Positions 16,158 to 30,826 are shown, numbered from the stretch's first letter. The stretch: 64,000 nucleotides of DNA from Ruminococcus sp. (GCA_050944435.1 JBMNRB010000005.1:17636-81635), one strand, 5' to 3'. Notes: generated from the letters alone by a model not told the origin. Numbers and translations are program-made.

Positions 16158-16277
16158 GTCATCCCTCTTTCCTTTTTTGTTTGTTCTCATCATATCACAT
16201 TTTTGGCGGGACTACTAGGAAATTCCCCCAAGCTGTGATAAAATTTACCGTAGTAAAGAGTGAAATGGAGTGGGAAA

Positions 16278-18203
16278 ATGCTGCGGCGTGGAGAGGTACT
16301 CAACAATACATATGAAGTAGTGGAGGAGATCGGTCAGGGCGGTGCGGGAATCGTCTATCTGGCTTACCATCTCCGCCTTCAAAAAAAAGTAGTGATTAAG
16401 AAAATGAAAGACCATTTCGGCGGAAGAATCAGTGAGCGCAGGGAGGCGGACATCCTGAAAAGTCTGCATCACAAATACCTTCCCCAGGTGTACGATTTTA
16501 TTCAGATGGGGGATTCTGTCTTTACCGTAATGGATTATATTGAAGGATGGGATCTTCTGAAATACATTCAGCAGGGACAGCAGTTCAATGAGCGGCAGCT
16601 TCTGATCTGGATGCGGCAGCTGGCCGAGGTGCTGGAATATCTGCATGGACAGAATCCGGCCATTGTGCACAGTGATATTAAACCGTCAAATATTATGATT
16701 ACCCTGGATGGAGACGTATGTCTGATTGATTTTAATGTTTCTTTCGGGGACAGCGGAATGCGGGGAATCTCCGGATACAGCCAGCGGTATGCCTCCCCGG
16801 AGCAGATTTATAAGAGTCAGCTGATGAAAAAAGGAGGAGATCCCAGGACGGTGACGGTGGATTACCGGACGGATATCTACAGCCTGGGAGCAAGCTTTTA
16901 CCATGTGATGACCGGATATCCGCCGGTAATGGACGGCGTGGCCGGCCAGCCGCTGCTTTCTTGGAGCGGCCTGCCTTACAGCCGCTGGTTTCTGGGGATC
17001 ATCGATAAATGTATGCGGGTAAATCCCATGGAGCGCTATCAGAGCGCTTCGGAGCTTCTGGGAGATCTTTTGAATATCCGGGAGAGGGACAGGGATTATA
17101 AGAAAGTCAAAACTCAGGAGAAGGTGGTGTATGCTTCGGGTATTCTGTGTATTTTGGCCGGGGTTATCTGCCTGTTCCTTGGAGGAAAACAGCTGAACAA
17201 TGAACATTTTCAGGAGGAATACCAGACGCTGGAGGAGATGGCCCAGACCGACGACTATGATCAGGTGGTTTCCACGGCGGTGGATCTTCTCAATAATAAA
17301 AAATATACCGGCGTACTGGAGGCAAACCAGGAGGAAAAGGGAAATATCCTGTATATGATTGCCAACTGTTATTTTGAACAGGAAGATTACAGTGAAGCCG
17401 TCCGTTTTTACCGGGAGGCGTTAAACTGTAACGGTGAAAATCCGGAATATTACCGGGATTATGGTATTGCCCTGGCGCGTCACGGCGATGTGGACGAGGC
17501 CGAAGCAGCCCTTAAATCGGCCATAGATCAGGGATTGGGGCAGAGTCAGATATATCTGGTACAGGCGGAGATAGCGCTGGCTCAGGAGGACTATACCACA
17601 GCGGTGGACTATTTCCGGCAGGCCATCGACGGGACGGAAGATCAGTATGATAAGTCCAGAGCCTATCTCCTCTGTGCCAGAGCTTATCGTGCCATGGGGG
17701 ATTACCGCCAGGAGATTGCCATACTGCAGGAGGCCCAGCAGCAGGCGGACAGCCGGTACCTTCCCTCCATACTGAGGGCCCTGGGTGCGGCCAGCACCCG
17801 TTATGGCGCCCAGGCCGGGGAAAGTGAGAGCGTGCAAAGCTACCAGGAAGCGCTGCGCTGTTATGAGACCCTGGTTACCCTGCCTTCGCCCAGCTTTAAC
17901 GATCAGATGAATCTGGCGGTGGTGCGTCAGATTCTGGGGGATTACCAGGGAGCCAGGGAGCAGCTTCTTTCCATGGAGCAGACCTATCCCGACGATTATC
18001 GGGTTTATATGAAGCTGGCTCTGCTTGAATGTGTGATCCAGGGGAATCTGGAGGAAAATTCCAGGGATTACAGTCAGGCGAACGCCTATTATCAGCAGGC
18101 AGAGCAGTACTATGAAAGTGTGAGAAACAGTGGAAAAAGCGACGATGAGATGCAGAACCTTGAAAATGTCATCCAGGAGCTGAAAAACAAAGGATGGCTG
18201 TAG
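16278..18203 (+). CDS. Hanks-type Ser/Thr protein kinase with one TM helix and a C-terminal TPR region
   Basis: IGQGGAGIVY, VVIKK, HSDIKPSN, DFN, SPEQ, DIYSLG; TM 'VVYASGILCILAGVICLFLGG'; repeated TPR-like helices (YFEQEDYSEAVRFYREAL). Confidence 0.9.
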   Translation: MLRRGEVLNNTYEVVEEIGQGGAGIVYLAYHLRLQKKVVIKKMKDHFGGRISERREADILKSLHHKYLPQVYDFIQMGDSVFTVMDYIEGWDLLKYIQQGQQFNERQLLIWMRQLAEVLEYLHGQNPAIVHSDIKPSNIMITLDGDVCLIDFNVSFGDSGMRGISGYSQRYASPEQIYKSQLMKKGGDPRTVTVDYRTDIYSLGASFYHVMTGYPPVMDGVAGQPLLSWSGLPYSRWFLGIIDKCMRVNPMERYQSASELLGDLLNIRERDRDYKKVKTQEKVVYASGILCILAGVICLFLGGKQLNNEHFQEEYQTLEEMAQTDDYDQVVSTAVDLLNNKKYTGVLEANQEEKGNILYMIANCYFEQEDYSEAVRFYREALNCNGENPEYYRDYGIALARHGDVDEAEAALKSAIDQGLGQSQIYLVQAEIALAQEDYTTAVDYFRQAIDGTEDQYDKSRAYLLCARAYRAMGDYRQEIAILQEAQQQADSRYLPSILRALGAASTRYGAQAGESESVQSYQEALRCYETLVTLPSPSFNDQMNLAVVRQILGDYQGAREQLLSMEQTYPDDYRVYMKLALLECVIQGNLEENSRDYSQANAYYQQAEQYYESVRNSGKSDDEMQNLENVIQELKNKGWL

Positions 18204-18227
18204 AAAGGATCAGGGGAGGAATTGAAA

Positions 18228-18368
18228 ATGACCTATGGTGAAATTCTTATGGTGTGCGGCGCAGGATTTACGGCGCTGGGACTGCTTATCCTGGTGATCG
18301 GCGGGATCGCCATGAGCGGGAAGAAGAAACGGCTGAAACAGAAGCTGTATGATAAATACGGCTTGTAG
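18228..18368 (+). CDS. Unannotated 46-aa single-TM protein in the T7SS operon
   Basis: Manual translation MTYGEILMVCGAGFTALGLLILVIGGIAMSGKKKRLKQKLYDKYGL*; GGGGAGG RBS; fills the kinase-essC gap; below the ORF-track length cutoff. Confidence 0.75.
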   Translation: MTYGEILMVCGAGFTALGLLILVIGGIAMSGKKKRLKQKLYDKYGL

Positions 18369-18376
18369 GAGGAAAT

Positions 18377-21300
18377 ATGGCATTTATTATTTCAGTATAC
18401 AGTGAGGAAGCCTTTAAAGAAATTTTGCTGCCGGCCCTTAATAATGCGGACAGTTCCGTCATTTTATACAAAGATGTGTTTCGGCTGAAAGAGGATTTGG
18501 TCCTGCCCATGGAAGTTATGGATCACAGGTGGCGTTTCCTTTACAGTCCGGATTATAAAATACAAAAAGAGGGACAGGATTATATAGGCAGGGTGATTCA
18601 GAATCGTGATGTGCTGAACTTGACGCTGCGGGAGGGAAAGCGGCTTTCCCTTCTGGTGAAGGAGACCCGGAATTCCTTTGCCGTATTTGAAAAGTATCGT
18701 CTGGACGGCATCCGCCGTTTAACGATTGGAAAGCTCCCGGAGAACGATATTCAGTACAATTCCTTTGACATGGTTTCTAAACGCCATGCTCTTCTGGAAC
18801 GGGATGAAAAGGGATGGTGCATCAAAGACCAGAACAGCGCCAACGGCGTATTTGTCAATTATCTGCGGATGGGAACAATAAAAAGTCTGCAGTTTGGAGA
18901 TCTGATCAGTATCATGGGGCTGAATATGATATTTCTGGGAGATATACTGGCCATTGATACTTCGGTGGAAAATTTACGGATAAAAGAGGATATCCTTTTG
19001 CCACTGCCGGCGCCGGAAAGAGAGAACAGAAGGCCGGCCGGCCGGTCTTCTGGGGAGGAAAATCACTATTTTCACAGAGTTCCCAGAAATATGGAACCGC
19101 TGGCGGAAGGGACGATGGAAATTGATCCGCCGCCCTCGCCGGGGAAGACGGCTGCGCGTTCTGCGCTGCTGACGGTGGGGCCTTCCCTTACCATGGCTCT
19201 GCCTATGCTGCTGGGCTGTGCAATGACGATCTATGCTTCACGGGCATCCGGAGGAAGTTCTGTTTTTATGTATACGGGCCTGGTAACCGCCGTTTCTTCC
19301 GCGTTGGTGGGAACTGTCTGGGCCCTTGCCAATATGAAGAAGCAGAAGCAGGAGACTGCCCGGCAGGAAGAAAAAAGGAGGCAGGCTTACGGGCAGTATT
19401 TGGATGAATGCGCCAGGACGCTGATGCAGCAGTATGAGCAGAATGGATATGCGATGCAGAATATGTATCCTGCGGCATATGCCTGCAGTTTTTATGACGA
19501 AAATTCCATGTATCTGTGGAACCGGAATGTCACCCATGAAGATTTTTTGTTTCAGCGTCTGGGTATCGGAGAAGTTCCTTTTCAGGTAAAGATTGGGATT
19601 CCAAAGAAGCGTTTTTCTGTGGAGAAGGATCTGCTGGCAGAGAGACCAGAGGATCTGAAAAATTCCTTCGCCATGCTTAAAGATGTTCCGGTGGGAGTGG
19701 ACTTAAAGGAGCACCGTCTGATCGGCGTAATCGGCGGCAGCGGCAGACGGGGAGCCTACCAGGTGGCCAAATGTCTGATCCTCCAGACGGCGGCCAACAT
19801 CTGTTACACCGATGTAAAGATTGCTCTGCTGTATGATCAGGCCAACAGCATTGAGGCGGAAAATTTAAAAAGTGTGAAATGGCTGCCCCATGTCTGGTCG
19901 GAAGATAAAAGGATCAGGTACGTGGGAGACACGGCGGTGGATGCGGCGGATGTGCTGTATGAACTGACGGCTGTGGTCAGGAAAAGAGCGGAAGAGGCGG
20001 CGGGAAATCCGGCAGGAAGGAAGATGCCCAAACCCCATTATCTTCTGGTGGTAACGGATCCGGCTCTGCTGGAAGGAGAGCTGATTGCCAAATACGTTTA
20101 TGAACCGCGGGAAGAATATGGGCTGACCACGGTAATCCTGGTGGAACGGTATGAGGATCTGCCCAATGCATGTGAATACATTGTGGAAAACGACGGCCAG
20201 TTTCAGGGGATTTATTCCGTAGGCAATGACAGTTCCCGGAAACAGCATGTGGTGTTTGATGATATTTCCGGGGAACAGATGGAGAATTTCGCCAGGCGTC
20301 TGTCCAGAATCGAGGTCAATGAAATTGAAACAGGGGGCGAGATCCCGGCGGATCTGTCGTTTCTGGATATGTATCATGTCGGCAGAATTGAGGATCTTCA
20401 GGTGGAGAACCGGTGGATGAAGAACAGGACCTACGATTCCATGAAGGCGTTAATCGGACAGAAGGCGGGGGGAGCGCCCTGTTATCTGGACGTCCATGAA
20501 AAGTATCACGGACCCCATGGACTGGTGGCCGGCACCACCGGTTCAGGAAAGAGCGAACTGCTTCAGACATACATTTTGTCTCTGGCAGTCAATTACAGCC
20601 CGGATGATATCAGCTTTTTTATCATTGATTTCAAAGGCGGGGGCATGGCTAATCTTTTTGCCGGGCTGCCCCACATGGCGGGACAGATCTCCAATCTGTC
20701 CGGCAATCAGATCCGCCGGGCTATGGTTTCGATTAAAAGTGAGAACAGAAGAAGACAACGTCTGTTTAACGAACACAGCGTAAACAATATTAATCAGTAC
20801 ACCCGCCTTTATAAAGACAATGAAGCTTCCGTTCCCATTCCCCATCTGTTTATCATCATTGATGAATTCGCAGAGCTGAAACGGGAGGAGCCGGATTTTA
20901 TGCGGGAGCTGATCAGTGTGGCCCAGGTGGGAAGAAGTCTGGGAGTACATTTGATTCTGGCTACCCAGAAACCCAGCGGAACTGTGGATGACAACATCTG
21001 GAGCAATTCCAAGTTCCGTCTCTGCCTGCGGGTACAGGACCGGCAGGACAGCAGTGATATGCTGCATAAGCCGGATGCGGCTTATCTGACCCAGGCCGGC
21101 CGGTGTTATCTTCAGGTGGGCAACGATGAGCTGTATGAGCTGTTCCAGTCCGGTTACAGCGGCGCTGTTTATGATGATAAGGTCAGCGGCCGGACGGATC
21201 TGGCAAAGATGGTGTCCATCACGGGAAGGGCGGCTCTGGTGGGAAACCGTATCCGGCTGAAACAAAAAGAAGAAAACCGCCGGCGCTGGATAGAGCTGCT

Positions 21301-23338
21301 GACAGAGCTGACGGCCGGTTCGGAATACAGGGAAGATATTTTTCAGCGGCTGAAAGAACGGGGAATCGATTATCCCGATACAGATTATAACCGGCGAAGA
21401 GTTGAGGAGTTTACTCTTTTGTATGAGGAAGCTGTGCAGGCCGGATACGGGCAGACGGAAAAGGCTGCGGCATATATTATGGCGGAAGGAGAGAAAAGGG
21501 GAAGCAAACTGCCTCAGCTGAAGGAAAAGACCCAGCTGGACGCCATTGTGGAATATCTGCAGAAACTGGCCCGGGAGAAAGGGTATCGTCATCGTTTTAT
21601 GCTGTGGCTGCCGGTTCTTCCGGAGAAACTATATCTTTCTTCTCTGCCGGGCTTTTCCCAGCTTTGCTTTGACGGGAAAACATGGAGGGAAGAGAAAAAA
21701 GAATGGGAACTTCAGGCGTATGTGGGACTGTATGATCATCCGGTCAATCAGGTACAGCTTCCTCTGGAAGTAAACCTGGCGGCGGAAGGCCATCATGCCG
21801 TCCTGGGGATGGTTTCCAGCGGAAAAAGCACTTTCCTGCAGACGCTTCTTTTTTCCCTGGTGTGCCGTTACACGCCGGAGCATGTGAATATTTACGGCAT
21901 AGATTTCGGAAGCCGTATTCTGGCGCCCTTTGAGGGGCTGGCCCATGTGGGCGGCATCATGTATGAGAATGATTTGGATAAGCTGTCTAAATTTTTCAAC
22001 ATGATCCTGACGATGATGAAAGAAAGAAAGGAACGGTTCCAGGGAGGGAATTATGCCCAGTACGTACAGGCAAACGGTCTTAAGGTGCCGGCGGTGGTAA
22101 TTGCCATTGATCAATACGCCGGTTTTCGGGAAAAAACGAAAGACAGGTTTGAGGAGGCGATGGTTCAGATTGCAAGGGAAGGGGCAGGATACGGTATTTT
22201 CCTTGTGATCACGGCTGCCGGTTTCGGTTCGGCAGGGATTCCCGCCCGCATCGGCGATAACATCCGCACGGTGATTTCTCTGGAGATGAACGATAAGTAT
22301 CAGTATCGGGAAGCCATGCGGACTATGCAGCTTTCCGTGCTTCCGGAGCCGGGAGTGAAAGGCCGCGGTCTGGCCAAGGCAGGCGAGAGCGTACTGGAGT
22401 TTCAGACTGCGCTTGCACTGGAAGCAGAGGATGATTATGAACGCGCCAAAGAAATGGGACAGGTGTTTGAACAGATGAATCAGGCGTGGAAAGGCGCTTC
22501 TGCCCGTCCGGTTCCTTCCATACCGGAGAAGCCTGTGCTGGAAGAGTACATGAAACTGGAAGCGGTAAGGAAGACGGCAGGAGAGGCACGATGGCTGCCC
22601 ATTGGTTACAATACGGAAAATGCGGATCTTTATTCCATCGATCTGAGCCGTACGTTCTGTTACCTGGTGTCGGGGAAAAGCCGCACAGGAAAAACAAATC
22701 TGCTGAAGGTGATGATGCATACCGCCGCCTTGAAAGAGAGTTCCCTTCATGTGGTGGACGGTTCGGGAGCTCTGGGGAAACCGGCACAGGAGTTGGGAGC
22801 AGATTATATTACGGAGGAGGAAGGGTTGTACCGTACGTTAAGTGAATTAGTTCCCCTTTTCCGGGAGCGCAACAAAATGAAACGGGATGCCCTGCGGGAA
22901 GGCTATGAGGATGAAGAAATCTATGAGAAGATGAGCAGACAGGTTCCCCATTTCTTCTTCATTGATGATTTGCCTTTCTTCGTACGGCTGGTGACAAAGC
23001 CAAAAGAAGGAGTGGGAGATATGCGGGGATTTATGGAGAACATTACCGACAAGGGAAGGCTTCACAATGTATTTTTCATCGCCGCCTTTAATCAGGATCA
23101 GATGCAGCAGATGGCAGGTATTCCTCTGTACGAGAATATGGTGCGGGATAAAAAAGGCATTCATCTGGGAGGCAATACGGCGGCTCAGCGTATGTTTAAC
23201 TTTGATTATCTCCCCTACGCGAAACAGGGTAAAGAGCAGAAAGCCGGCATAGGTATGCTGCCCTCCGGCGAAGGAGCGGCGCCTTCTGTGAAAGTGGCGG
23301 TTCCCTATGCAGGCAGAAACAGTGGTGGCAATCTATGA
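18377..23338 (+). CDS. essC: Type VII secretion FtsK/SpoIIIE ATPase (EssC/YukB-like) with N-terminal FHA domain
   Basis: FHA (IGK...VSKRHA...SANGVFVN), two TM helices, three ATPase domains with Walker A GTTGSGKS / GMVSSGKS / GKSRTGKT and D1 'IIDEFAELK...GRSLGVHLILATQKP'. Confidence 0.95.
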   Translation: MAFIISVYSEEAFKEILLPALNNADSSVILYKDVFRLKEDLVLPMEVMDHRWRFLYSPDYKIQKEGQDYIGRVIQNRDVLNLTLREGKRLSLLVKETRNSFAVFEKYRLDGIRRLTIGKLPENDIQYNSFDMVSKRHALLERDEKGWCIKDQNSANGVFVNYLRMGTIKSLQFGDLISIMGLNMIFLGDILAIDTSVENLRIKEDILLPLPAPERENRRPAGRSSGEENHYFHRVPRNMEPLAEGTMEIDPPPSPGKTAARSALLTVGPSLTMALPMLLGCAMTIYASRASGGSSVFMYTGLVTAVSSALVGTVWALANMKKQKQETARQEEKRRQAYGQYLDECARTLMQQYEQNGYAMQNMYPAAYACSFYDENSMYLWNRNVTHEDFLFQRLGIGEVPFQVKIGIPKKRFSVEKDLLAERPEDLKNSFAMLKDVPVGVDLKEHRLIGVIGGSGRRGAYQVAKCLILQTAANICYTDVKIALLYDQANSIEAENLKSVKWLPHVWSEDKRIRYVGDTAVDAADVLYELTAVVRKRAEEAAGNPAGRKMPKPHYLLVVTDPALLEGELIAKYVYEPREEYGLTTVILVERYEDLPNACEYIVENDGQFQGIYSVGNDSSRKQHVVFDDISGEQMENFARRLSRIEVNEIETGGEIPADLSFLDMYHVGRIEDLQVENRWMKNRTYDSMKALIGQKAGGAPCYLDVHEKYHGPHGLVAGTTGSGKSELLQTYILSLAVNYSPDDISFFIIDFKGGGMANLFAGLPHMAGQISNLSGNQIRRAMVSIKSENRRRQRLFNEHSVNNINQYTRLYKDNEASVPIPHLFIIIDEFAELKREEPDFMRELISVAQVGRSLGVHLILATQKPSGTVDDNIWSNSKFRLCLRVQDRQDSSDMLHKPDAAYLTQAGRCYLQVGNDELYELFQSGYSGAVYDDKVSGRTDLAKMVSITGRAALVGNRIRLKQKEENRRRWIELLTELTAGSEYREDIFQRLKERGIDYPDTDYNRRRVEEFTLLYEEAVQAGYGQTEKAAAYIMAEGEKRGSKLPQLKEKTQLDAIVEYLQKLAREKGYRHRFMLWLPVLPEKLYLSSLPGFSQLCFDGKTWREEKKEWELQAYVGLYDHPVNQVQLPLEVNLAAEGHHAVLGMVSSGKSTFLQTLLFSLVCRYTPEHVNIYGIDFGSRILAPFEGLAHVGGIMYENDLDKLSKFFNMILTMMKERKERFQGGNYAQYVQANGLKVPAVVIAIDQYAGFREKTKDRFEEAMVQIAREGAGYGIFLVITAAGFGSAGIPARIGDNIRTVISLEMNDKYQYREAMRTMQLSVLPEPGVKGRGLAKAGESVLEFQTALALEAEDDYERAKEMGQVFEQMNQAWKGASARPVPSIPEKPVLEEYMKLEAVRKTAGEARWLPIGYNTENADLYSIDLSRTFCYLVSGKSRTGKTNLLKVMMHTAALKESSLHVVDGSGALGKPAQELGADYITEEEGLYRTLSELVPLFRERNKMKRDALREGYEDEEIYEKMSRQVPHFFFIDDLPFFVRLVTKPKEGVGDMRGFMENITDKGRLHNVFFIAAFNQDQMQQMAGIPLYENMVRDKKGIHLGGNTAAQRMFNFDYLPYAKQGKEQKAGIGMLPSGEGAAPSVKVAVPYAGRNSGGNL

Positions 23339-24045
23339 TTTCCTGTATGACTTATGATTCCCAGGGAAAAGAGCTGAGGGAATTGGAAACAATTATGAAA
23401 GACGAGGCGGCATACGCCTGCGAGGAAAAGTGGATCTGGCAGTTTCTGGAACACTGGGAGGAAGCCGGCGACTGGCTGGAGAAGGGGCCTCTTTTGGATC
23501 TGGCATGTCTGGATGTGACAGATCCGGAAGTCCTGGGAGAACTGGAAGCATTTCGGAAGAAATATCAGAAAACGCTGCTGATGGTCATAGCCGACGGAAA
23601 CGTCTCCCCCATGTGTTATCTGAAACCTTCCGTTTTTCCCGCTTCTTTGCTGCTCAGGCCGGCGGATAAAAACCAGATCCGTCAGGTGGTGCGGGAATTT
23701 TTCGAGGCTTTCTGCCGGGAGCGGGGGGAGAAAGAACCCCGGGAAACCTTTGTGGTGGAGACCAGAGAGGGCAAGACCTGGATTCCCTATGAGCAGATTG
23801 TATTTTTTGAGGCCAGGGAGAAAAAAGTTTTTGTCAGGGCCGGTATTTCAGAGTACGGGCTGTATGATACGCTGGAAAATATCCAGGGGAGGCTGCCGGA
23901 TGATTTCCTGCGCTGTCACAGGAGTTATATTGTGAATAAAAAGCAGATTGAACGGGTGAGGCTTTCTCAGAACTTAATTGAGATGAAGGATGGAGCGGGG
24001 ATTCCTGTCTCCAGAAGCTACAGAACGGATGTGAAGAATATATGA
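23335..24045 (+). CDS. LytTR-family DNA-binding regulator with atypical receiver domain
   Basis: C-terminal 'FLRCHRSYIVN...IPVSRSY' LytTR; receiver keeps the LDV Asp but shows YDSQ, IAD and LLRP in place of DD, T/S and KP. Confidence 0.85.
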   Translation: MISCMTYDSQGKELRELETIMKDEAAYACEEKWIWQFLEHWEEAGDWLEKGPLLDLACLDVTDPEVLGELEAFRKKYQKTLLMVIADGNVSPMCYLKPSVFPASLLLRPADKNQIRQVVREFFEAFCRERGEKEPRETFVVETREGKTWIPYEQIVFFEAREKKVFVRAGISEYGLYDTLENIQGRLPDDFLRCHRSYIVNKKQIERVRLSQNLIEMKDGAGIPVSRSYRTDVKNI

Positions 24046-24725
24046 TGGAAAATTGGTACGTTTTATCCCCAGGGGAACTTACGGTGCTGGCTGCGGGAAT
24101 GGGAATCGGCAGCTTTTACGGGCTGGAGTTTGATCCTCCCGATTTCGACAGAAATTCTTATCTTGATTTGATTTATCAAATGACAAAGAAGGGATTGCTG
24201 ACAGCCCGGGAAAACCGGGTGGAAGCAGCAGAAGAGATGAAGAGACTGTTTGGGCCGCTTCGGGATGGGGGAAGAATTCTCCTTTGCATGCCGGCGCGGG
24301 AAATATTTCCCGCCTGGTGCTGCTACTGCACCGCCGGCCAGGTGACCGTGACGGAAAAAAGTCCGGTGGACCGGGACAAAATCAGGCTGTGCGCCGTTGA
24401 AAACCGGGAAAGGGCAATGGAGCTTCTTATGGAAACCTATTTTCCGGAGAAAATAGCGGAAACAGCGGATATGCTTGCCGTTGAGACAAAGACTGAAGAA
24501 TTCGGCGGAGTATTTCCGCCGGCGGAAGAAGTGTTAAAAGACGAGAAAGTCCGGATGGTGATGGATGCGCTGGATCCGGCGGACGGCGGAGTATGCGCCC
24601 GGCTTTGCATAACAAAACATCCCTTTGGATATGAGATACTGTATCAGGGGGAACAGGAGGAAAAATGTTTCTTTGGAAAGGATCGGATGAAAAAGTATCT
24701 GAACAGGATGACGGGAGGCGGATGA
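24042..24725 (+). CDS. Hypothetical T7SS-associated soluble protein, possibly EsaE/EspG-like
   Basis: 227 aa, within the operon; N-terminal 'YVLSPGELTVLAA' recalls EsaE/EspG N-termini (by eye only). Confidence 0.5.
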   Translation: MMENWYVLSPGELTVLAAGMGIGSFYGLEFDPPDFDRNSYLDLIYQMTKKGLLTARENRVEAAEEMKRLFGPLRDGGRILLCMPAREIFPAWCCYCTAGQVTVTEKSPVDRDKIRLCAVENRERAMELLMETYFPEKIAETADMLAVETKTEEFGGVFPPAEEVLKDEKVRMVMDALDPADGGVCARLCITKHPFGYEILYQGEQEEKCFFGKDRMKKYLNRMTGGG

Positions 24726-24726
24726 A

Positions 24727-24975
24727 GTGATAATGGTGGATGTTTACGTGCCGTCTGTGGACCGGGAGTATGATTTTGAGATAGATGAACATGCGCCGGT
24801 ATATATGGTGACGGAGGAAATTACGGCCATGGTATGTCAGAAGGAACAGTGCGTGCTGACAGGGGACGTCAGAAAATTGCTTCTGTGCGATAGACAGACC
24901 CAGCGGATTCTCAGTTCCCGGCGCAGTCTGAGTGAATGCGGGATCAAAACGGGAAATAAACTGCTTCTGGTTTAA
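24727..24975 (+). CDS. esaB: EsaB/YukD-like ubiquitin-fold T7SS protein
   Basis: 82 aa, 'YDFEIDEHAPV...ILSSRRSLSECGIKTGNKLLLV'; T7SS context. Confidence 0.85.
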   Translation: MIMVDVYVPSVDREYDFEIDEHAPVYMVTEEITAMVCQKEQCVLTGDVRKLLLCDRQTQRILSSRRSLSECGIKTGNKLLLV

Positions 24976-25072
24976 CCTGCCGTCTGTCGGGGAAAACAGG
25001 CTGTTCGTCGCTTTTTGCACCGTTTTTTGCAGCAGATGATATAGTAAATACAGGAAGGATGGAAGAAAGCTT

Positions 25073-25432
25073 ATGAGATTCAATCCGGTAAAGGTAATGG
25101 GTACGGCGGAAATAATTCTGAATGAGAAGAGACGGCTGGGCCGGATGGAAGAAGAGCTGGAGATGGTGATGAAACAGATCGGGGATGATTCACTTTTTTC
25201 TGAAGTGAAAGCTTCTCTTGGAAATCAGCTTGAGATGATCCGCCGAGAGAAGGAGTCGGCCGGACAGATGATTCTGGCCCTGGAGGAAATCTGCCGTATG
25301 GTGCAGGAGTGCGAGCGGCGCGTTATGGATGAGATGGAACAGGAGCAGATCCGTTATCCCCGCCTGGCCGTGGGATATCAATATATCCGGATTCCTTCGT
25401 TTTCCTCGAATCCTCTGGGAATTATCCGGTAA
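25073..25432 (+). CDS. Small helical protein, degenerate WXG100-like (no WxG)
   Basis: 119 aa, helix-turn-helix hairpin pattern, heads the WXG100 array. Confidence 0.55.
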   Translation: MRFNPVKVMGTAEIILNEKRRLGRMEEELEMVMKQIGDDSLFSEVKASLGNQLEMIRREKESAGQMILALEEICRMVQECERRVMDEMEQEQIRYPRLAVGYQYIRIPSFSSNPLGIIR

Positions 25433-25476
25433 GATTTTCACAGGCGGGATATGGCCTTGCAGGAAAGGAGAGCCAA

Positions 25477-25779
25477 ATGGACAGAGAACTGGAAGTGGAT
25501 ACAATGAACCTTAACCAGAAGGCGGCGCGTTTTGCAGAACTTGCCCTGGCCCTTGAGGAAGATCTGGAGGAGCTTCGGGGGAGTCTTATGGAGCTGAACG
25601 GCAGTTGGGAAGGGGATGCCGCCCGGGCCTTTGAACGGCAGTTTCAGGGGGATTATGAAACGATGAAAACGGTCTGCGAGACCGTAAAGGAACTGCAGAA
25701 TACCATGGAGTACGCAAAGGGAGAATACATAAGGTGTGAGCAGGCGGTAGAAGATACCGTGGCGGCGATTAAAATTTAG
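25477..25779 (+). CDS. WXG100 family protein
   Basis: 100 aa, central WEG, C-terminal YIRCE. Confidence 0.92.
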   Translation: MDRELEVDTMNLNQKAARFAELALALEEDLEELRGSLMELNGSWEGDAARAFERQFQGDYETMKTVCETVKELQNTMEYAKGEYIRCEQAVEDTVAAIKI

Positions 25780-25796
25780 CGGGAGGCAAAAAGCGT

Positions 25797-26105
25797 ATGG
25801 TAATTCGGGTAACAACAGAAGAATTAAGGAAAAGGGCTGATGACGCTTGGCAGAAAATAAACAAGATGAGCAGAGATTTCCAAAGTATTGCGGATCTGAT
25901 CTCACAGACGGCAGGATGCTGGCAGGGAGAGGCGGGAGATCTCTACCGGAGTATTTTTGAAAAAGAAAAGCCGGATATGGAGAAAATTTTGAAACGGCTG
26001 GGGGAATTTCCCGAAGATTTATTGGAGATGGCAGGCGTATACGAAGGAACGGAGCGGGAAATCCAGGCTCTGGAAAGCAGTCTTCCGGTGGATGTGATTT
26101 CATAG
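25797..26105 (+). CDS. WXG100 family protein
   Basis: 102 aa, central WQG, C-terminal YEGTE. Confidence 0.92.
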   Translation: MVIRVTTEELRKRADDAWQKINKMSRDFQSIADLISQTAGCWQGEAGDLYRSIFEKEKPDMEKILKRLGEFPEDLLEMAGVYEGTEREIQALESSLPVDVIS

Positions 26106-26115
26106 GAGGTGTCAG

Positions 26116-26424
26116 ATGGCGACAGCGTGGACAATTGAGATGGACTATGCCAGGGCGGTCAGCCAGGCGAAACAACTGGAGAGTCTTTCCGGTGAACTGG
26201 AAAAAACGGCCATTCAGCTGGAAAACGCCATGGAACAGTTAAAAAGCGGCTGGCAGGGGGAAGGAGCCGACGTTTACCGGGGCAAAGGGAATCAGCTGGC
26301 GGAAAAGATAACAAAGAATGCCAGACAGCTGGAAAATACTGCTCAGGCGATACGGAACATTGCCCGGGAAGTCCGGGAGGCGGAACTGGAGAATTTAAGA
26401 ATAGCAGAAGAAAGAACGTATTAA
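26116..26424 (+). CDS. WXG100 family protein
   Basis: 102 aa, central WQG; lacks the Tyr of the YxxxE motif (VREAE). Confidence 0.88.
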   Translation: MATAWTIEMDYARAVSQAKQLESLSGELEKTAIQLENAMEQLKSGWQGEGADVYRGKGNQLAEKITKNARQLENTAQAIRNIAREVREAELENLRIAEERTY

Positions 26425-26430
26425 AGGAGG

Positions 26431-26739
26431 ATGGATAATATGGCAGAAATTATGGTAACGTCACGGGAGCTGAAAAACAAAGCGGAAGAGCTGAGAAGTC
26501 AGAATACCAGTCTGAAGTCCGCCATTGAGACTTTGGGAAGTCTTGAGGCCGAGCTGGCTTCCATGTGGGAAGGATCGGCGAAGGATGCTTTTCACAATGC
26601 TTTTACGAAGGATAAGGGTCAGATGGAAACCTTCAAAAGCACCATTGATCAATATGCTGCGGCGCTGGATGAGATTGCAGCGAAATATGCCCAGGCAGAA
26701 GCAGCCAACGCCAATATTGCCAATACAAGGAATTACTGA
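26431..26739 (+). CDS. WXG100 family protein (EsxA-like)
   Basis: 102 aa, central WEG, C-terminal YAQAE. Confidence 0.93.
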   Translation: MDNMAEIMVTSRELKNKAEELRSQNTSLKSAIETLGSLEAELASMWEGSAKDAFHNAFTKDKGQMETFKSTIDQYAAALDEIAAKYAQAEAANANIANTRNY

Positions 26740-26769
26740 TTCGTTTTATAAGATTGGGAAACAGGAGGT

Positions 26770-27090
26770 ATGAATATGGACGGAACGTTAAAAGTGACAC
26801 CGGAGAAACTTATTGCAGCAGCGTCAGAGTTTTCAGCTCAGGGAAACACGGTAAGCAGTCTGACACAACAGATGATGACCATTGTACAGGGGTTAAGCAG
26901 CGTATGGCAGGGGGAAGCCTCTTCTGCTTATCTGGCCAGGTTTCAGCAGCTTCAGGGAGATATTGATCAGATGAATAAAATGATCCAGGAACATGTGCAG
27001 GATTTAAATGATATGGCGAGAAATTATCAGTCTGCGGAAGATGCCGGAAAGGATATTGCAGCCGGACTGGCTTCTGATGTAATATTATAA
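26770..27090 (+). CDS. WXG100 family protein (EsxA-like)
   Basis: 106 aa, 'LKVTPEKL', central WQG, C-terminal YQSAE. Confidence 0.93.
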   Translation: MNMDGTLKVTPEKLIAAASEFSAQGNTVSSLTQQMMTIVQGLSSVWQGEASSAYLARFQQLQGDIDQMNKMIQEHVQDLNDMARNYQSAEDAGKDIAAGLASDVIL

Positions 27091-27104
27091 AATGCCGGAA
27101 TGGG

Positions 27105-27144
27105 AGGTCACATATCCGCCTGCAGCGGGGCGGATATGTGACCT
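27105..27144 (+). other. Perfect 16-bp inverted repeat without a U-tract
   Basis: AGGTCACATATCCGCC-tgcagcgg-GGCGGATATGTGACCT. Confidence 0.7.
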
Positions 27145-27190
27145 GAAGATATTTCCGGTTATAAAAAAGCATTGAAAGGAAGGCGAAAGT

Positions 27191-27961
27191 TTGTATAAAG
27201 TCATAGCGTCCTGCATCAGCCACTGCGGCAAAGTGCGGGAGATTAATGAAGACAATCTGTGTTTTGACGGAAAATATTTAGAAGAGAAACACCGGGGACT
27301 GGAAAGAGCCGTTACCATACGAAGAGGCACCGAAAGTCTGCTGTGTTTCGGGATTTTTGATGGAATGGGGGGCGAAAAGGACGGCGAAGTTGCTTCTTAT
27401 CTGGCGGCAGTTCATTTCCGGGAAGAACTGAATCGGCTGGAGGAATGGCAGAAAAATCCCCGGGATTTTCTCGATAATATCTGCAAAGAGATGAACCGGG
27501 CAATCTGTGAGGAGGCAAAAGAGAGAAAAGCCAACGGTATGGGAACGACGGCCACGATCCTCTGTTTTCACAATGAAGAGATGACGGTGTGCAATCTGGG
27601 AGACAGTCCGGCGTTTCTTGTAAGGGAAGGAGAGATGATTCCGGTTTACGAGGAACATACCAATCGTCATTTCCTGGAAGAGCAGGGAATTACGGGAAGG
27701 AAGCCCTCATTGACCCAGTGTCTGGGAATTCCCCCGGAGGAGATGGTGATTCACCCTTATATCCATGAGGATGATCTGAGAGAAGGCGATCAATATCTGA
27801 TCTGCAGCGACGGGCTGACGGATATGATTTCCAAAGAGGAAATCCTGGCTATACTGCAGGAAAACCTGACCCCGGGAGATTGTGTGAAAAAGCTGCAGGA
27901 CAGAGCGCTGGAGCAGGGAGGAAAAGATAATATTACAATTATACTGTGCAGAATCGTTTAA
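27191..27961 (+). CDS. PP2C/PPM family Ser/Thr phosphatase
   Basis: 'GKVREINED', 'IFDGMGG', 'GTT', 'NLGDSP', 'ICSDGL', 'GGKDNIT'. Confidence 0.93.
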   Translation: MYKVIASCISHCGKVREINEDNLCFDGKYLEEKHRGLERAVTIRRGTESLLCFGIFDGMGGEKDGEVASYLAAVHFREELNRLEEWQKNPRDFLDNICKEMNRAICEEAKERKANGMGTTATILCFHNEEMTVCNLGDSPAFLVREGEMIPVYEEHTNRHFLEEQGITGRKPSLTQCLGIPPEEMVIHPYIHEDDLREGDQYLICSDGLTDMISKEEILAILQENLTPGDCVKKLQDRALEQGGKDNITIILCRIV

Positions 27962-28101
27962 CAGTCTTCAGAACCGGAAAACCGGGGCTGGGGCTTTTTG
28001 GCGTTAAAGGAAAAGAAGAAATTTTTGCTTTTTGTCAAATCTGTGGTATGATGGGGTATGACCTGGGGGGAGTAATGGGGTAAGTTGAGGAGTGATTTGA
28101 A

Positions 28102-29472
28102 ATGAAGGGTAATATGCAAAGTTTAAATCAGTATCAGAAAACTCATAAAATGGATCAGGAAACGGTACTGCAGATGGGAATCGATATTTGTCAGTATCTG
28201 AAACGGGGCGTACCCCATGGGGAAATCCGTTCCTCCAGTATTTTGGTATCCGAAGACGGAGAGTTTGTCCTGAAGGAAGAAAATCTGTATATGGATCCGG
28301 ATCCGGCAGGGGACGTCTATGCGCTGGGAATGCTGATGTATCGGCTGCTGAATCATGGGAGACTGCCGTTTATGCCGCCCTATCCCAAACAGGTGACCCA
28401 GGAAGAAAAAGAACAGGCAATCAACCGGTGTCTGTCGGGTGAAACTCTTCCAGACCCCGCAGACGGCGGTCAGCAGATGGGAGAGGTTCTGCGAAAAGCG
28501 TGTCATGCCGACCGCAGCGTCCGTTTTCAGACGGCGCGGGAGCTGGAAACGGCGCTGAACAGTGTCCTTGAGATAAAACCTGTTTACAAAGAACAGCAGG
28601 AAGAAGAAAAGCAGTCTGGAAAAAAGAACAAAGAAAATAAAAAGAAAAGAGAGAGTGGGAAGAAGGAGAAAAAGAAAAAAAAGTCAGGGATTTCCATGCC
28701 TTCTGCGCCATCTTTTTCTTTAGGACAGATCGGACGCAGGGGGATTTTTGTCTTTCTCTCCCTGCTTCTTTCCCTGGTGTGGATTATTATGGAAAACCGG
28801 ATGACTATAGCGGGAACGGCCGGGATGATGTTTTATGGCTACTGTCTGGCACAGGGAATTTTGCTGCTGATTTCTATGGGAGCAGGAGGGATGTTTCTGA
28901 AACTGCTGTGGGGCGTTTCCTTCCTGGATCTTTTGTTTGTGGCCCTTTATGATATTGTGCTGGAAGGATTGATGAACCGTTACGGCGTGTCCATTCCCGA
29001 TTTTTACCATCCTGGATATATGGCAGTGATACTGCCGCTGGCGGCGGGGATCATCTATTTTGCGGGGAATCTGCTGAAAGGAGGATTCGGCTATGGCCAG
29101 GCCAGACTTTGCACGCTGATTATGACGGCGGCGGGCATTGTCATGCTTTTTTTTAATCTGACCGGTATAGATATCAGTTTTTTTTCGCTGGGGCTTTATC
29201 CCTATTGGTGCGGCGTTGTCGTGCTGGTTTTGGGAATACTGGCCATGGAGAACGAATGGTCCGGTTCCGGAGTAAAACTTCTTTGCTTCCTGACGGTTTG
29301 TATTTCCATGGGAGTGATGGTGCTGAACGGATTTTGGGAGCAGATTGCGGCTTTTGGGCTTCCGGCCGGAGGAATCGAACGGATCTTACTGATACTTATG
29401 ATCCTTTGTTCGGCAGCAGCCTGGTTTTTGCTGGGCAGGGGCAGGAACCGGAGAGGTCCTGTGTCGAATTAA
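28102..29472 (+). CDS. Kinase C-lobe-only pseudokinase fused to a polytopic membrane domain
   Basis: HGEIRSSSIL, DVYALG and RFQTAREL present; no Gly loop, VAIK or DFG; Lys-rich linker, then about 8 hydrophobic helices. Confidence 0.7.
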   Translation: MKGNMQSLNQYQKTHKMDQETVLQMGIDICQYLKRGVPHGEIRSSSILVSEDGEFVLKEENLYMDPDPAGDVYALGMLMYRLLNHGRLPFMPPYPKQVTQEEKEQAINRCLSGETLPDPADGGQQMGEVLRKACHADRSVRFQTARELETALNSVLEIKPVYKEQQEEEKQSGKKNKENKKKRESGKKEKKKKKSGISMPSAPSFSLGQIGRRGIFVFLSLLLSLVWIIMENRMTIAGTAGMMFYGYCLAQGILLLISMGAGGMFLKLLWGVSFLDLLFVALYDIVLEGLMNRYGVSIPDFYHPGYMAVILPLAAGIIYFAGNLLKGGFGYGQARLCTLIMTAAGIVMLFFNLTGIDISFFSLGLYPYWCGVVVLVLGILAMENEWSGSGVKLLCFLTVCISMGVMVLNGFWEQIAAFGLPAGGIERILLILMILCSAAAWFLLGRGRNRRGPVSN

Positions 29473-29590
29473 GGAAATTTAACAGAATTGTAATTGTATC
29501 TTTCAAATTTGTGCGTTATGCTAATAGGGCGGGATGATAAAAGATATAAAGCATAAGTAATAAGGGTTATCAGGGGAAGAATGATTTACA

Positions 29591-30826
29591 ATGGATGAAA
29601 GACAGAGAAGACTTAGGATAGAGCGCATGAAGCGCGAAAAGGAAAGACAGCTTCGCAGACGCCGAAGGCAGAAAATGATACTGAAAAGATGCCTGATGGT
29701 CGCAGCCTGCGTAGCGGTGGTGCTGCTTTGCATTTCAGCCGTATGGGCTATTATCAGACCTTCCGGAAAAGAGGAAGAGAACCAGGCTGAACAAGTGGTG
29801 GAAGTAGAAGCGGCAGAAGAGGAAAAGGAGGCGGAGCCGATGGCTGCGGCCACGCCGGAGCCAACGGAAGCAGAAGAACAGACGGACAGCGAGGAGACCC
29901 AGGAACAGACAGCGGAAACCAATGCAGACGCAGCGGCCAGGAAGGAGACGATTAAAACCGGTACAGAGTTAAAGTATGCGGTGCCGGGCTGGCAGGTGGA
30001 CGATACCGGCTGGTGGTATGCCAATGAAGATGGTACATATTATACTAACGGCTGGCAGGAGATAGACGGCCAGGAATACTATTTTAATTCTGAAGGCTAT
30101 ATGCAGACAGGCTGGGCGGTGATTGGCAACAAAGGATGTTATTTTTCTGAAGAAGGCATTTATGATCCGGATAAAGAATCCAAAATGGTTGCGCTGACCT
30201 TTGATGACGGACCGGGAGACCATACGGACGAACTTCTGGATATCCTGGAAGCAAATGGAGCAAAGGCCACTTTCTTCATGCTGGGGGAAAATGTGGCGGA
30301 AAAGGGCGCGGATGTAATTCCAAGAATGATTGAACTGGGCTGTGAGCTGGGAAATCATTCCTATGACCATCCAAATCTGAAAGAGTTGGACGAAGCGGGA
30401 ATAAAGGATCAGTTTGACCGGACGGATCAGGAGATCGCAAAGATTAGCGGCGGCCAGGTGGCGACCTTGGCAAGAACACCCTTTGGATCGCAGGATGAGA
30501 CTATCACCGGTTATATTGGGAAACCGTGCATTTACTGGAGTCTGGATACTCTGGATTGGCAGACAAAAGATGTGGATTCTAATATCTCGGCAGTATTGGA
30601 TAATGTAGAAGATGGAGAGATCATACTGATGCATGATATCTGGCCTACGACCGTGGAATCCTGCAAAACGATTATCCCGGCGCTGGTGAAAGAAGGATAT
30701 CAGCTGGTGACGGTCAGCGAGCTTGCAAAGGCCAAGGGCGTTAACATGGAAAATGGCGTGACTTATTATGATTTTTATTCATCGGAGGAAGCTACATCCG
30801 GCGGTGCCGATGAAGCAGAAGAATAG
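29591..30826 (+). CDS. Membrane-anchored polysaccharide (peptidoglycan) deacetylase with cell-wall-binding repeats
   Basis: TFDDGP, HSYDHP, LMHD NodB motifs; 'GWQEIDGQEYYFNSEGYMQTGW' repeats; N-terminal TM. Confidence 0.9.
   Translation: MDERQRRLRIERMKREKERQLRRRRRQKMILKRCLMVAACVAVVLLCISAVWAIIRPSGKEEENQAEQVVEVEAAEEEKEAEPMAAATPEPTEAEEQTDSEETQEQTAETNADAAARKETIKTGTELKYAVPGWQVDDTGWWYANEDGTYYTNGWQEIDGQEYYFNSEGYMQTGWAVIGNKGCYFSEEGIYDPDKESKMVALTFDDGPGDHTDELLDILEANGAKATFFMLGENVAEKGADVIPRMIELGCELGNHSYDHPNLKELDEAGIKDQFDRTDQEIAKISGGQVATLARTPFGSQDETITGYIGKPCIYWSLDTLDWQTKDVDSNISAVLDNVEDGEIILMHDIWPTTVESCKTIIPALVKEGYQLVTVSELAKAKGVNMENGVTYYDFYSSEEATSGGADEAEE

Follow-up and report, generated by a model that had tools for sequence, protein, structure and literature searches.

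A candidate toxin-less type VII secretion locus within a probable envelope-signalling operon of a gut Lachnospiraceae genome

Genes of the locus

The window analysed in this work is a stretch of 64,000 nucleotides (nt) of a Ruminococcus sp. genome (GCA_050944435.1, JBMNRB010000005.1:17636-81635); the assembly, from a gut Lachnospiraceae, amounts to 2.92 Mb in 47 contigs and is 98% complete. Window positions 18377-27090 (about 8.8 kb) carry the block proper of a type VII secretion system (T7SS), of which all genes are intact and preceded by good ribosome-binding sites. Genes for a Ser/Thr kinase and a peptide of 46 amino acids (aa) lie upstream, and genes for a PP2C phosphatase, a truncated membrane kinase ('half-kinase') and a polysaccharide deacetylase lie downstream. 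An initial interpretation made from the sequence alone, called below the sequence-only reading, had proposed one co-oriented block running from the kinase to a membrane pseudokinase, and each of the genes it listed was indeed found, intact and on the + strand, over 16260-29472 (Table 1).

Table 1. Features of the locus in window coordinates (TM, transmembrane)
Feature	Position	Strand	Basis
Ser/Thr kinase (Hanks-type), one TM helix, extracellular TPR domain	16260/16278-18203	+	Pkinase 2e-37 and TPR families
Single-TM peptide, 46 aa	18228-18368	+	basic tail ending LYDKYGL
EssC/TsxC ATPase, 1653 aa	18377-23338	+	TIGR03928 1087 bits, FHA 5e-12
LytTR protein (TsiN-like)	23335-24045	+	LytTR 2.6e-22
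EspG-like chaperone (TsxG-like), 227 aa	24042-24725	+	predicted fold
YukD/EsaB ubiquitin-like protein (TsxB)	24727-24975	+	PF08817 3.8e-6
Helical WXG100 relative without WxG, 119 aa	25073-25432	+	hhalign profile match
Five WXG100 genes	25477-25779, 25797-26105, 26116-26424, 26431-26739, 26770-27090	+	PF06013
17-bp hairpin	27105-27144	+	folding energy versus shuffles
PP2C/PPM Ser/Thr phosphatase (Stp1/TsxF-like)	27191-27961	+	PP2C 1.2e-16, NF033484 1.6e-45
Half-kinase, 456 aa: kinase C-lobe, Lys-rich linker, about 8 TM helices	28102-29472	+	homology to kinase C-lobes
Membrane-anchored choline-binding-repeat polysaccharide (peptidoglycan-type) deacetylase	29591-30826	+	Polysacc_deac_1 2.6e-32, Choline_bind_3 2e-10

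Within the T7SS block, only EssC is a membrane protein; it far exceeds the TIGR03928 cut-off of 778 bits and matches FtsK_SpoIIIE in two stretches (2e-58). It is composed of an N-terminal FHA domain (residues 116-179), two TM helices and FtsK-like ATPase domains, in three of which GKS/GKT P-loop (Walker A) motifs are legible in the translation. Top matches among solved structures were YukB, EccC and EssC; the best of them, Bacillus subtilis YukB, could be aligned only from residue 231 on. The start of the next gene overlaps the EssC stop codon. Its product carries the LytTR domain already noticed in the sequence-only reading, to which a degenerate receiver domain at the N-terminus has now to be added. 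The AlphaFold2 model of this protein (predicted local distance difference test, pLDDT, 93.3) retrieved full-length ComE (1.6e-12), the AgrA LytTR domain and REC domains as top PDB folds. In the receiver-like half, Asp60 is retained, the acidic pair and the Thr are absent and the Lys is replaced by Arg. No histidine kinase gene was found in the locus. As judged by the model, the protein is best called a pseudo-receiver LytTR regulator; its gene is present in 60-63 of the 80 related loci which were fetched for comparison.

The 227-aa protein, left as an unknown in the sequence-only reading, could be identified. It gave no match in Pfam or NCBIfam scans. A model built with 44 homologues occupying the same position in related loci (pLDDT 88.6, predicted template modelling score 0.85) was compared to the PDB, and the top 16 matches were all mycobacterial EspG1/3/5, with E-values down to 5.7e-7 and TM-scores around 0.6. 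The protein thus has, according to its predicted structure, the EspG chaperone fold, and the EspG-like family occupies the same position in 51 related loci. YukD/EsaB just passes the PF08817 cut-off (28 bits versus 27) and was detected by tblastn in 74 of the 80 loci.

Six WXG100-like genes had been announced. Five of them are true WXG100 genes by PF06013 (E-values, in gene order, 2.4e-11, 4.3e-9, 1.9e-11, 2.5e-13 and 3.5e-16), with weak PPE/PE similarity on the third and the fifth. The sixth, which encodes the 119-aa protein, is a relative: no Pfam match was obtained, and its family profile aligned by hhalign with the WXG100 profile at 95.4% probability (E 1.9e-8, 92 columns). This family lacks the WxG and retains the Y..cE motif, as VQECE in the window protein. 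For each of the five WXG100 genes a separate orthologue exists in 50-62 of the 80 loci, with the order preserved, and a genome-wide search showed WXG100 genes to be confined to the T7SS locus in the genome under study. For every T7SS gene, non-synonymous divergence (dN) from the related locus L091 was far below synonymous divergence (dS); since dS is saturated, these ratios are rough. As far as can be judged from its genes, the T7SS of the window does not look dead.

Two possible regulatory elements were observed around the WXG array. At 25009-25045, before the 119-aa gene, two 11-nt direct repeats CGYTTTTTGCA, spaced by 12 nt from start to start, lie 5' of an extended -10-like sequence TGATATAGT; together they may form a regulated internal promoter for the array. 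Directly 3' of the last WXG100 gene lies a perfect 17-bp hairpin (-42.4 kcal/mol, z -7.45, none of 200 shuffles as stable) devoid of a clear T tract, which is likely a terminator, an attenuator or an mRNA-stabilising element. A scan for consensus promoters and terminators gave nothing decisive and missed this hairpin.

The kinase most likely starts at the ATG at 16278, which gives 641 aa, in agreement with the 641-642 aa of the gene in relatives. It keeps the Gly loop, the Lys, the HxD (non-RD), DFN and APE-like positions, and its topology matches that of TsxD. PP2C retains the DGMGG, GDS, CSDG and DN motifs. From these residues, both enzymes look catalytically intact. The kinase is one of about nine in the 2.9 Mb of the genome. 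The 46-aa gene is preceded by a GGAGG 8 nt 5' of its ATG and separated from EssC by 8 nt.

Related loci and the same site in close relatives

Relatives of the window EssC (45-58% identity) were found in at least 222 species-level genomes, nearly all from Lachnospiraceae or related gut Clostridia; cultured members are Anaeromicropila herbilytica and Anaerosporobacter faecicola, among others. A single EssC cluster of Blautia counts 774 members, and the best 120 EssC matches of the protein search were all family members at 44% identity or more. A literature search found no paper on Lachnospiraceae T7SS. Clustering of the genes over the 80 fetched loci gave a core order of TM-FHA protein, EssC, LytTR, EspG-like protein, YukD, 119-aa family and the five WXG100 orthologue groups. 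The TM-FHA protein (about 200 aa, FHA assigned by hhalign at 97.6-98.9%) precedes EssC in 50 loci; in a few it is replaced by a DUF6382-FHA protein and a 67-aa TM peptide, and some sister loci have a kinase, the DUF6382-FHA protein and the 67-aa TM protein before EssC. As judged by profile searches, the distribution of the family is patchy, the EspG-like profile matching 16 of 300 sampled genera of the bacterial family and not the other genome of the same genus.

Around this core, variable neighbours include kinases with TPR, LRR, PQQ or Ig ectodomains, PP2C, vWA-TM-FHA proteins and trypsin-FHA proteins. Candidate effectors of about 390 aa have an LXG-like N-terminus and a Gly-rich C-terminus and are followed by DUF4176. 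Other neighbours are 'reverse' Mbeg1-like lipases of about 545 aa (L014:19829-21466, L046:18412-20076 and other genes of cluster 15), whose last 90 residues are similar to the LXG-like domain at the N-terminus of the other effectors of the family. They are 'reverse' T7SS lipase toxins comparable to TslA, and a 276-aa candidate immunity gene stands before each of them. One assembly, that of Clostridium sp. chh4-2, carries the same T7SS locus on scaffolds 10 and 28 (L023 and L026) with identical gene order and identities; the locus is either truly duplicated or was assembled twice.

Neighbours were counted in those 39 related loci whose flanks extend 8 kb or more in both directions. A kinase is found in 27 and PP2C in 19, one or the other within 10 kb in 32, a separate FHA protein in 33 and a candidate effector module in 28. 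In 20 of them the kinase lies no more than 4 genes upstream of EssC; with about nine kinases in 2.9 Mb, as in the genome under study, chance adjacency would be around 8%. At the level of the family, these gene counts indicate that the link of the T7SS to Ser/Thr signalling is real.

The absence of EsaA, EssB and LXG or Rhs toxin-immunity genes, which the sequence-only reading could not recognise in the window, holds over the whole 98%-complete genome. No YukC/EssB (PF10140) was found there, the B. subtilis control being positive, nor any match to EsaA (TIGR03929). For EssA (PF10661) the only match, at 16.7 bits, is below the cut-off and lies within a 761-aa open frame carrying a kinase homologue, and this candidate was rejected. 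LXG, DUF4176 and homologues of the effectors or lipases of sister loci were all absent from the genome. The search for canonical esaA, essB and LXG genes elsewhere, which would have completed an ordinary T7SSb, therefore came out negative. The only open reading frame with RHS repeats (G000:C33:2177-5620) encodes a 1147-aa protein that has RHS/YD-type repeats in addition to a TIR-like N-terminus; this protein bears no relation to the T7SS and was rejected as a T7SS toxin.

As had been stated, no toxin is linked to the locus: after the last WXG100 gene come the hairpin and PP2C. Only two sister loci, L090 and L091, extend past the last WXG100 gene; in both, an LXG-like Gly-rich protein comes next (L090:18986-20325, L091:15607-15915), with a glycine-zipper-like C-terminus and, in L090, an additional DUF4176. 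By its sequence features this protein, absent from the genome under study, is probably a membrane-active toxin. The gene inventories thus point to toxin absence as a trait of the window lineage and not of the T7SS family.

We then come to the site itself in other genomes, sampled as single contigs except for G255, a 100% complete genome of the same genus. The closest relatives by housekeeping genes are L094, L095 and L096, with identities to the window of 92-94% for DUF2284, 96% for BipA, 85-87% for the kinase, 77-79% for PP2C, 74-77% for the half-kinase and 79-80% for the deacetylase. In these three, the kinase, the 46-aa gene, PP2C, the half-kinase and the deacetylase stand back to back and no T7SS gene is present at the site. 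DNA homology with the window ends at 18368-18370, just past the 46-aa stop codon, and restarts at 27177-27181, 10-14 nt 5' of the PP2C start. The junction is clean in L094 and L095, with no remnant. The spacer of L096 is 180 nt long, and about 50 nt of it can still be recognised as the decayed 3' end of the fifth WXG100 gene; this is the best local match of the spacer in the 8.8-kb block (score 50 versus 23.4 +/- 2.4 for shuffles, none of 300 as high) and is followed by a hairpin similar to that of the window.

Because this remnant of the last WXG100 gene was left behind, the 8.8-kb block appears to have been deleted in the L096 lineage. Consistently, the more distant L091 and L092 (kinase 69%, EssC 71%) carry the T7SS at the same site, after the 46-aa gene. 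In L090 the T7SS is near the kinase, split off by an insertion of about 8 kb between the kinase/46-aa pair and EssC (L090:2303-9985) which includes an IS110 transposase fragment, LGT, an FHA-FHA-ABC transporter and zinc-ribbon, YARHG and TPR proteins. As an alternative to deletion, a gain of the T7SS by insertion in the genome under study was considered and set aside; the L096 remnant, together with the site shared with L091 and L092, favours deletion. The comparison of these sites indicates that a T7SS stood at the window site in the common ancestor and that it was probably deleted twice in close relatives.

The flanking genes did not decay upon this loss: relative to L094, dN/dS was 0.06-0.10 over the kinase (0.07), PP2C (0.10), the half-kinase and the deacetylase. 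Since it is kept under purifying selection in relatives devoid of the T7SS, the flanking kinase/46-aa/PP2C module would work without it. The view of the whole block as one dedicated unit is hardly compatible with these five contiguous genes in T7SS-less relatives. In L090-L092 and L094-L096 alike, whether or not a T7SS is present, gene calling placed a 46-aa gene behind the kinase. As this pairing survives both the lack of a T7SS and its displacement by 8 kb, the peptide was rejected as a T7SS part.

The same applies to the half-kinase, which the sequence-only reading had included as a membrane pseudokinase of the T7SS. Over residues 5-160 it shares 35% identity with full-length kinases in their C-lobe, HGE standing in place of HRD and the DFG being absent. 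It is not a one-off remnant, since full-length homologues of 450-503 aa exist (36-77% identity). The deacetylase directly follows it in L093, L094, L096 and G255. G255 has no EssC (FtsK only) and still carries the half-kinase, the deacetylase and BipA, as does L093; the half-kinase therefore belongs with the deacetylase (28102-30826 in the window, L093:10001-12855 and, in L100 of G255:C12, 7770-10716, each beside BipA). From its conservation, the pair looks like a small unannotated family resembling a cell-wall module. A role of the half-kinase as EssB analogue was also rejected, as it is a Hanks kinase in truncated form, has 8 TM helices and persists with the deacetylase in T7SS-free genomes.

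Possible links between secretion and envelope signalling

A link between the flanking enzymes and the T7SS would depend on the FHA domain of EssC, whose motif residues are GK, SKRH and NG. Over 78 EssC homologues, conservation reaches 100% for G118, 99% for S134, 100% for H137, 100% for N156 and 99% for G157, and a basic residue follows the FHA Ser in most members. The position after the first Gly is Lys in 46% and Arg in 10% of homologues. FHA motifs are conserved in kinase-linked T7SS subtypes (Garrett et al. 2024, PMC11217815), and Table S1 of that work gives GR/SxxH/NG percentages of 0/0/21 for T7SSb, 20/30/90 for TsiC and 100/100/100 for TsjC. The 10/99/99 of the window family matches none of these. 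Judging from the conserved residues, phosphothreonine binding by the EssC FHA domain is plausible, not assured.

The locus could operate as follows. EssC hexamers would export WXG100-type proteins, some of which may be kept soluble by the EspG-like protein acting as a cytosolic chaperone, and YukD would bind the ATPase, as in established T7SS biology. The LytTR protein would tune transcription of the T7SS block. A phosphothreonine mark set by the kinase and removed by PP2C could be read by an FHA domain, of which only that of EssC is available in the locus; as shared, pleiotropic enzymes, the kinase and PP2C would in this way couple secretion to the state of the cell envelope.

How the two parts of the locus relate may be answered in several ways. 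On balance, and from comparative sequence data, we lean towards a reading of 18377-27090 as a complete, toxin-less T7SS family member lying within an older envelope-signalling operon, with the kinase and PP2C as shared enzymes. They are rated as such because both survive the loss of the T7SS. Several points weigh against this reading. The locus lacks both an effector and the TM-FHA protein otherwise common before EssC, and it may therefore be reduced or partly disabled. The canonical FHA Arg is a Lys here, as in much of the family, leaving phosphothreonine binding uncertain. Finally, a T7SS might exist elsewhere in the genomes of L094-L096, known from single contigs; this is ruled out for G255 only.

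The sequence-only reading had favoured a dedicated and reversible phosphothreonine switch made of the kinase, PP2C and the EssC FHA domain and gating the T7SS, as PpkA/PppA/Fha1 do in the Pseudomonas H1-T6SS. Such an arrangement would agree with the co-oriented, tightly packed genes from the kinase through EssC, with the catalytic residues kept in both enzymes, with the conserved SxxH and NG of the FHA domain and with the strong enrichment of kinase, PP2C and FHA genes around the family. FHA motifs are also conserved in the kinase-linked subtypes (PMC11217815), and a kinase/phosphatase/FHA pathway does control Esx in Schaalia (PMC13622651). It is difficult to reconcile with the closest relatives, in which the T7SS is deleted and the kinase, 46-aa gene, PP2C and half-kinase are intact, the enzymes remaining under purifying selection. 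The strong hairpin separating the last WXG100 gene from PP2C, the poorly conserved FHA Arg and the lack of a separate FHA adaptor in the locus argue in the same direction. We consider this gating mechanism unlikely, and the kinase and PP2C are improbable as enzymes reserved for the T7SS. The chance that they affect the T7SS at all is, judged from gene context, higher, in our estimate somewhat short of even.

At the opposite end, the flanking operon may serve cell-wall signalling only, with the T7SS under its own LytTR protein and the adjacency devoid of functional meaning. The existence of the flanking module without a T7SS, the greater age of the half-kinase/deacetylase pair compared to the kinase/PP2C pair and the status of LytTR as a translationally coupled core T7SS gene are all in line with mere neighbourhood. 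It leaves unexplained the frequency of a nearby kinase or PP2C (32 of 39 loci) and of a kinase within 4 genes upstream (20 of 39), to be compared with the 8% or so expected by chance, as well as the conservation of SxxH and NG in the FHA domain of EssC; moreover, no T7SS promoter is evident between the 46-aa gene and EssC in the window. An absence of any functional connection is accordingly given a low probability. Still less probable is decay, in which this copy, having lost its TM-FHA partner and effector module, no longer secretes and is heading to the deletion seen in sister lineages. The lack of a TM-FHA gene, effector or DUF4176 anywhere in the genome, the probable double loss in close relatives and the patchiness of the family (16 of 300 genera, absent from a same-genus genome) would fit a decaying system. 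A maintained system is indicated by the T7SS genes, all intact and each preceded by a good ribosome-binding site, by a dN that stays far below dS for every one of them versus L091 (dS being saturated), and by L091 and L092, which likewise have only the 46-aa peptide before EssC.

The reading as a T7SS member within an older operon can be extended, at the price of much lower confidence. EssC would then be the sole dedicated membrane part of a minimal T7SS whose cargo is the six WXG100-type proteins with their EspG-like chaperone; wired into a cell-wall signalling operon, export would follow the state of the envelope instead of serving toxin delivery, and the system would be gained and lost as an 8.8-kb cassette. 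We hold this full scenario to be rather doubtful.

The main new result of this analysis is the evidence for deletion, together with the kinase/phosphatase module retained without the T7SS. It calls for caution, as a kinase beside a T7SS is not automatically a built-in part of it. The sister lineages with the kinase/phosphatase operon and a deleted T7SS offer a ready comparison to tell secretion switches from general envelope sensors. The window copy itself, without toxin, TM-FHA partner or T7SSb membrane proteins, is a natural minimal T7SS that could reveal the role of EssC and WXG100 proteins alone.

Comparison with known systems

Garrett, Higginson and Palmer (2024) defined T7SSc-j, noted kinases, PPM phosphatases and FHA proteins in them and drew the analogy with T6SS (PMC11217815), which bears out the caveat of the sequence-only reading that Bacillota subtypes of this sort had been described. 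A 2026 preprint showed by experiment that the Esr kinase/phosphatase/FHA pathway controls Esx in Schaalia odontolytica (PMC13622651). The idea of phospho-control of a T7SS is thus already published and is not new.

Canonical T7SSb (Staphylococcus aureus Ess, B. subtilis Yuk) shares with the window the EssC model, YukD/EsaB and WXG100 proteins. In contrast, the genome under study has no EssB/YukC, EsaA, EssA or LXG, and its six WXG-type genes contrast with a single EsxA. The FHA region of the window EssC does not align to that of B. subtilis YukB, and the FHA SxxH and NG motifs conserved in the window family are lost in T7SSb (PMC11217815).

PpkA/PppA/Fha1 of the H1-T6SS and the Schaalia Esr pathway comprise, as in the window, a membrane Hanks kinase, a PP2C and an FHA reader beside a secretion ATPase. 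They differ in that the window FHA domain sits within EssC and that genes for MoxR, vWA or beta-propeller sensor proteins are absent. Furthermore, the window kinase and phosphatase are kept in relatives without the secretion system, and from gene content a regulatory link is here only possible.

T7SSj and T7SSe have in common with the window a membrane kinase with a TPR C-terminus (TsjD), PP2C (TsxF) and an FHA-bearing EssC. Their small TM protein (TsxK/H) has a counterpart in the single-TM peptide before EssC. Neither TsxI, a large Ig-like envelope protein, nor TsxJ, a DUF6382-FHA protein, is found in the window locus, whereas LytTR and EspG-like genes are present there and its kinase and PP2C outlive T7SS loss. 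The sole DUF6382-FHA gene of the genome (C31:3297-4571) lies beside Tad pilus genes: its 424-aa product stands at the end of a Tad/Flp-type pilus cluster (G000:C31:3297-14907). The same contig encodes a 957-aa kinase, preceded by a 70-aa TM peptide and 55% identical to the PQQ-type kinases found beside T7SS loci elsewhere.

The synteny comparison with described subtypes, suggested in the sequence-only reading, gave T7SSi of Vallitalea (TsiB, TsiC, TsiG, TsiM, TsiN) as the nearest and no full fit to any of subtypes c-j. Four of the five T7SSi components (B, C, G and N) are matched by the window locus, and T7SSi likewise has no EsaA, EssA or EssB (PMC11217815). The fifth, TsiM, a P-loop/ParA-like and kinase-like protein with a single C-terminal TM helix, has no counterpart in the window, and none turned up when representatives of 21 recurrent neighbour families were scanned with Pfam. 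Compared to T7SSi, the window family possesses a fixed array of five WXG100 genes with one relative lacking WxG, and usually a TM-FHA protein before EssC with kinases and PP2C nearby. Four RefSeq EssC accessions of the family were absent from the accession lists of PMC11217815, in which the positive control was found. T7SSi is reported from Vallitalea only (PMC11217815) and the window family is widespread in Lachnospiraceae. On gene content, FHA motifs and accession lists, the window system would best be classed as a T7SSi relative without a name of its own, and gut Lachnospiraceae, abundant Blautia included, would thus carry a common T7SS family fitting no named subtype.

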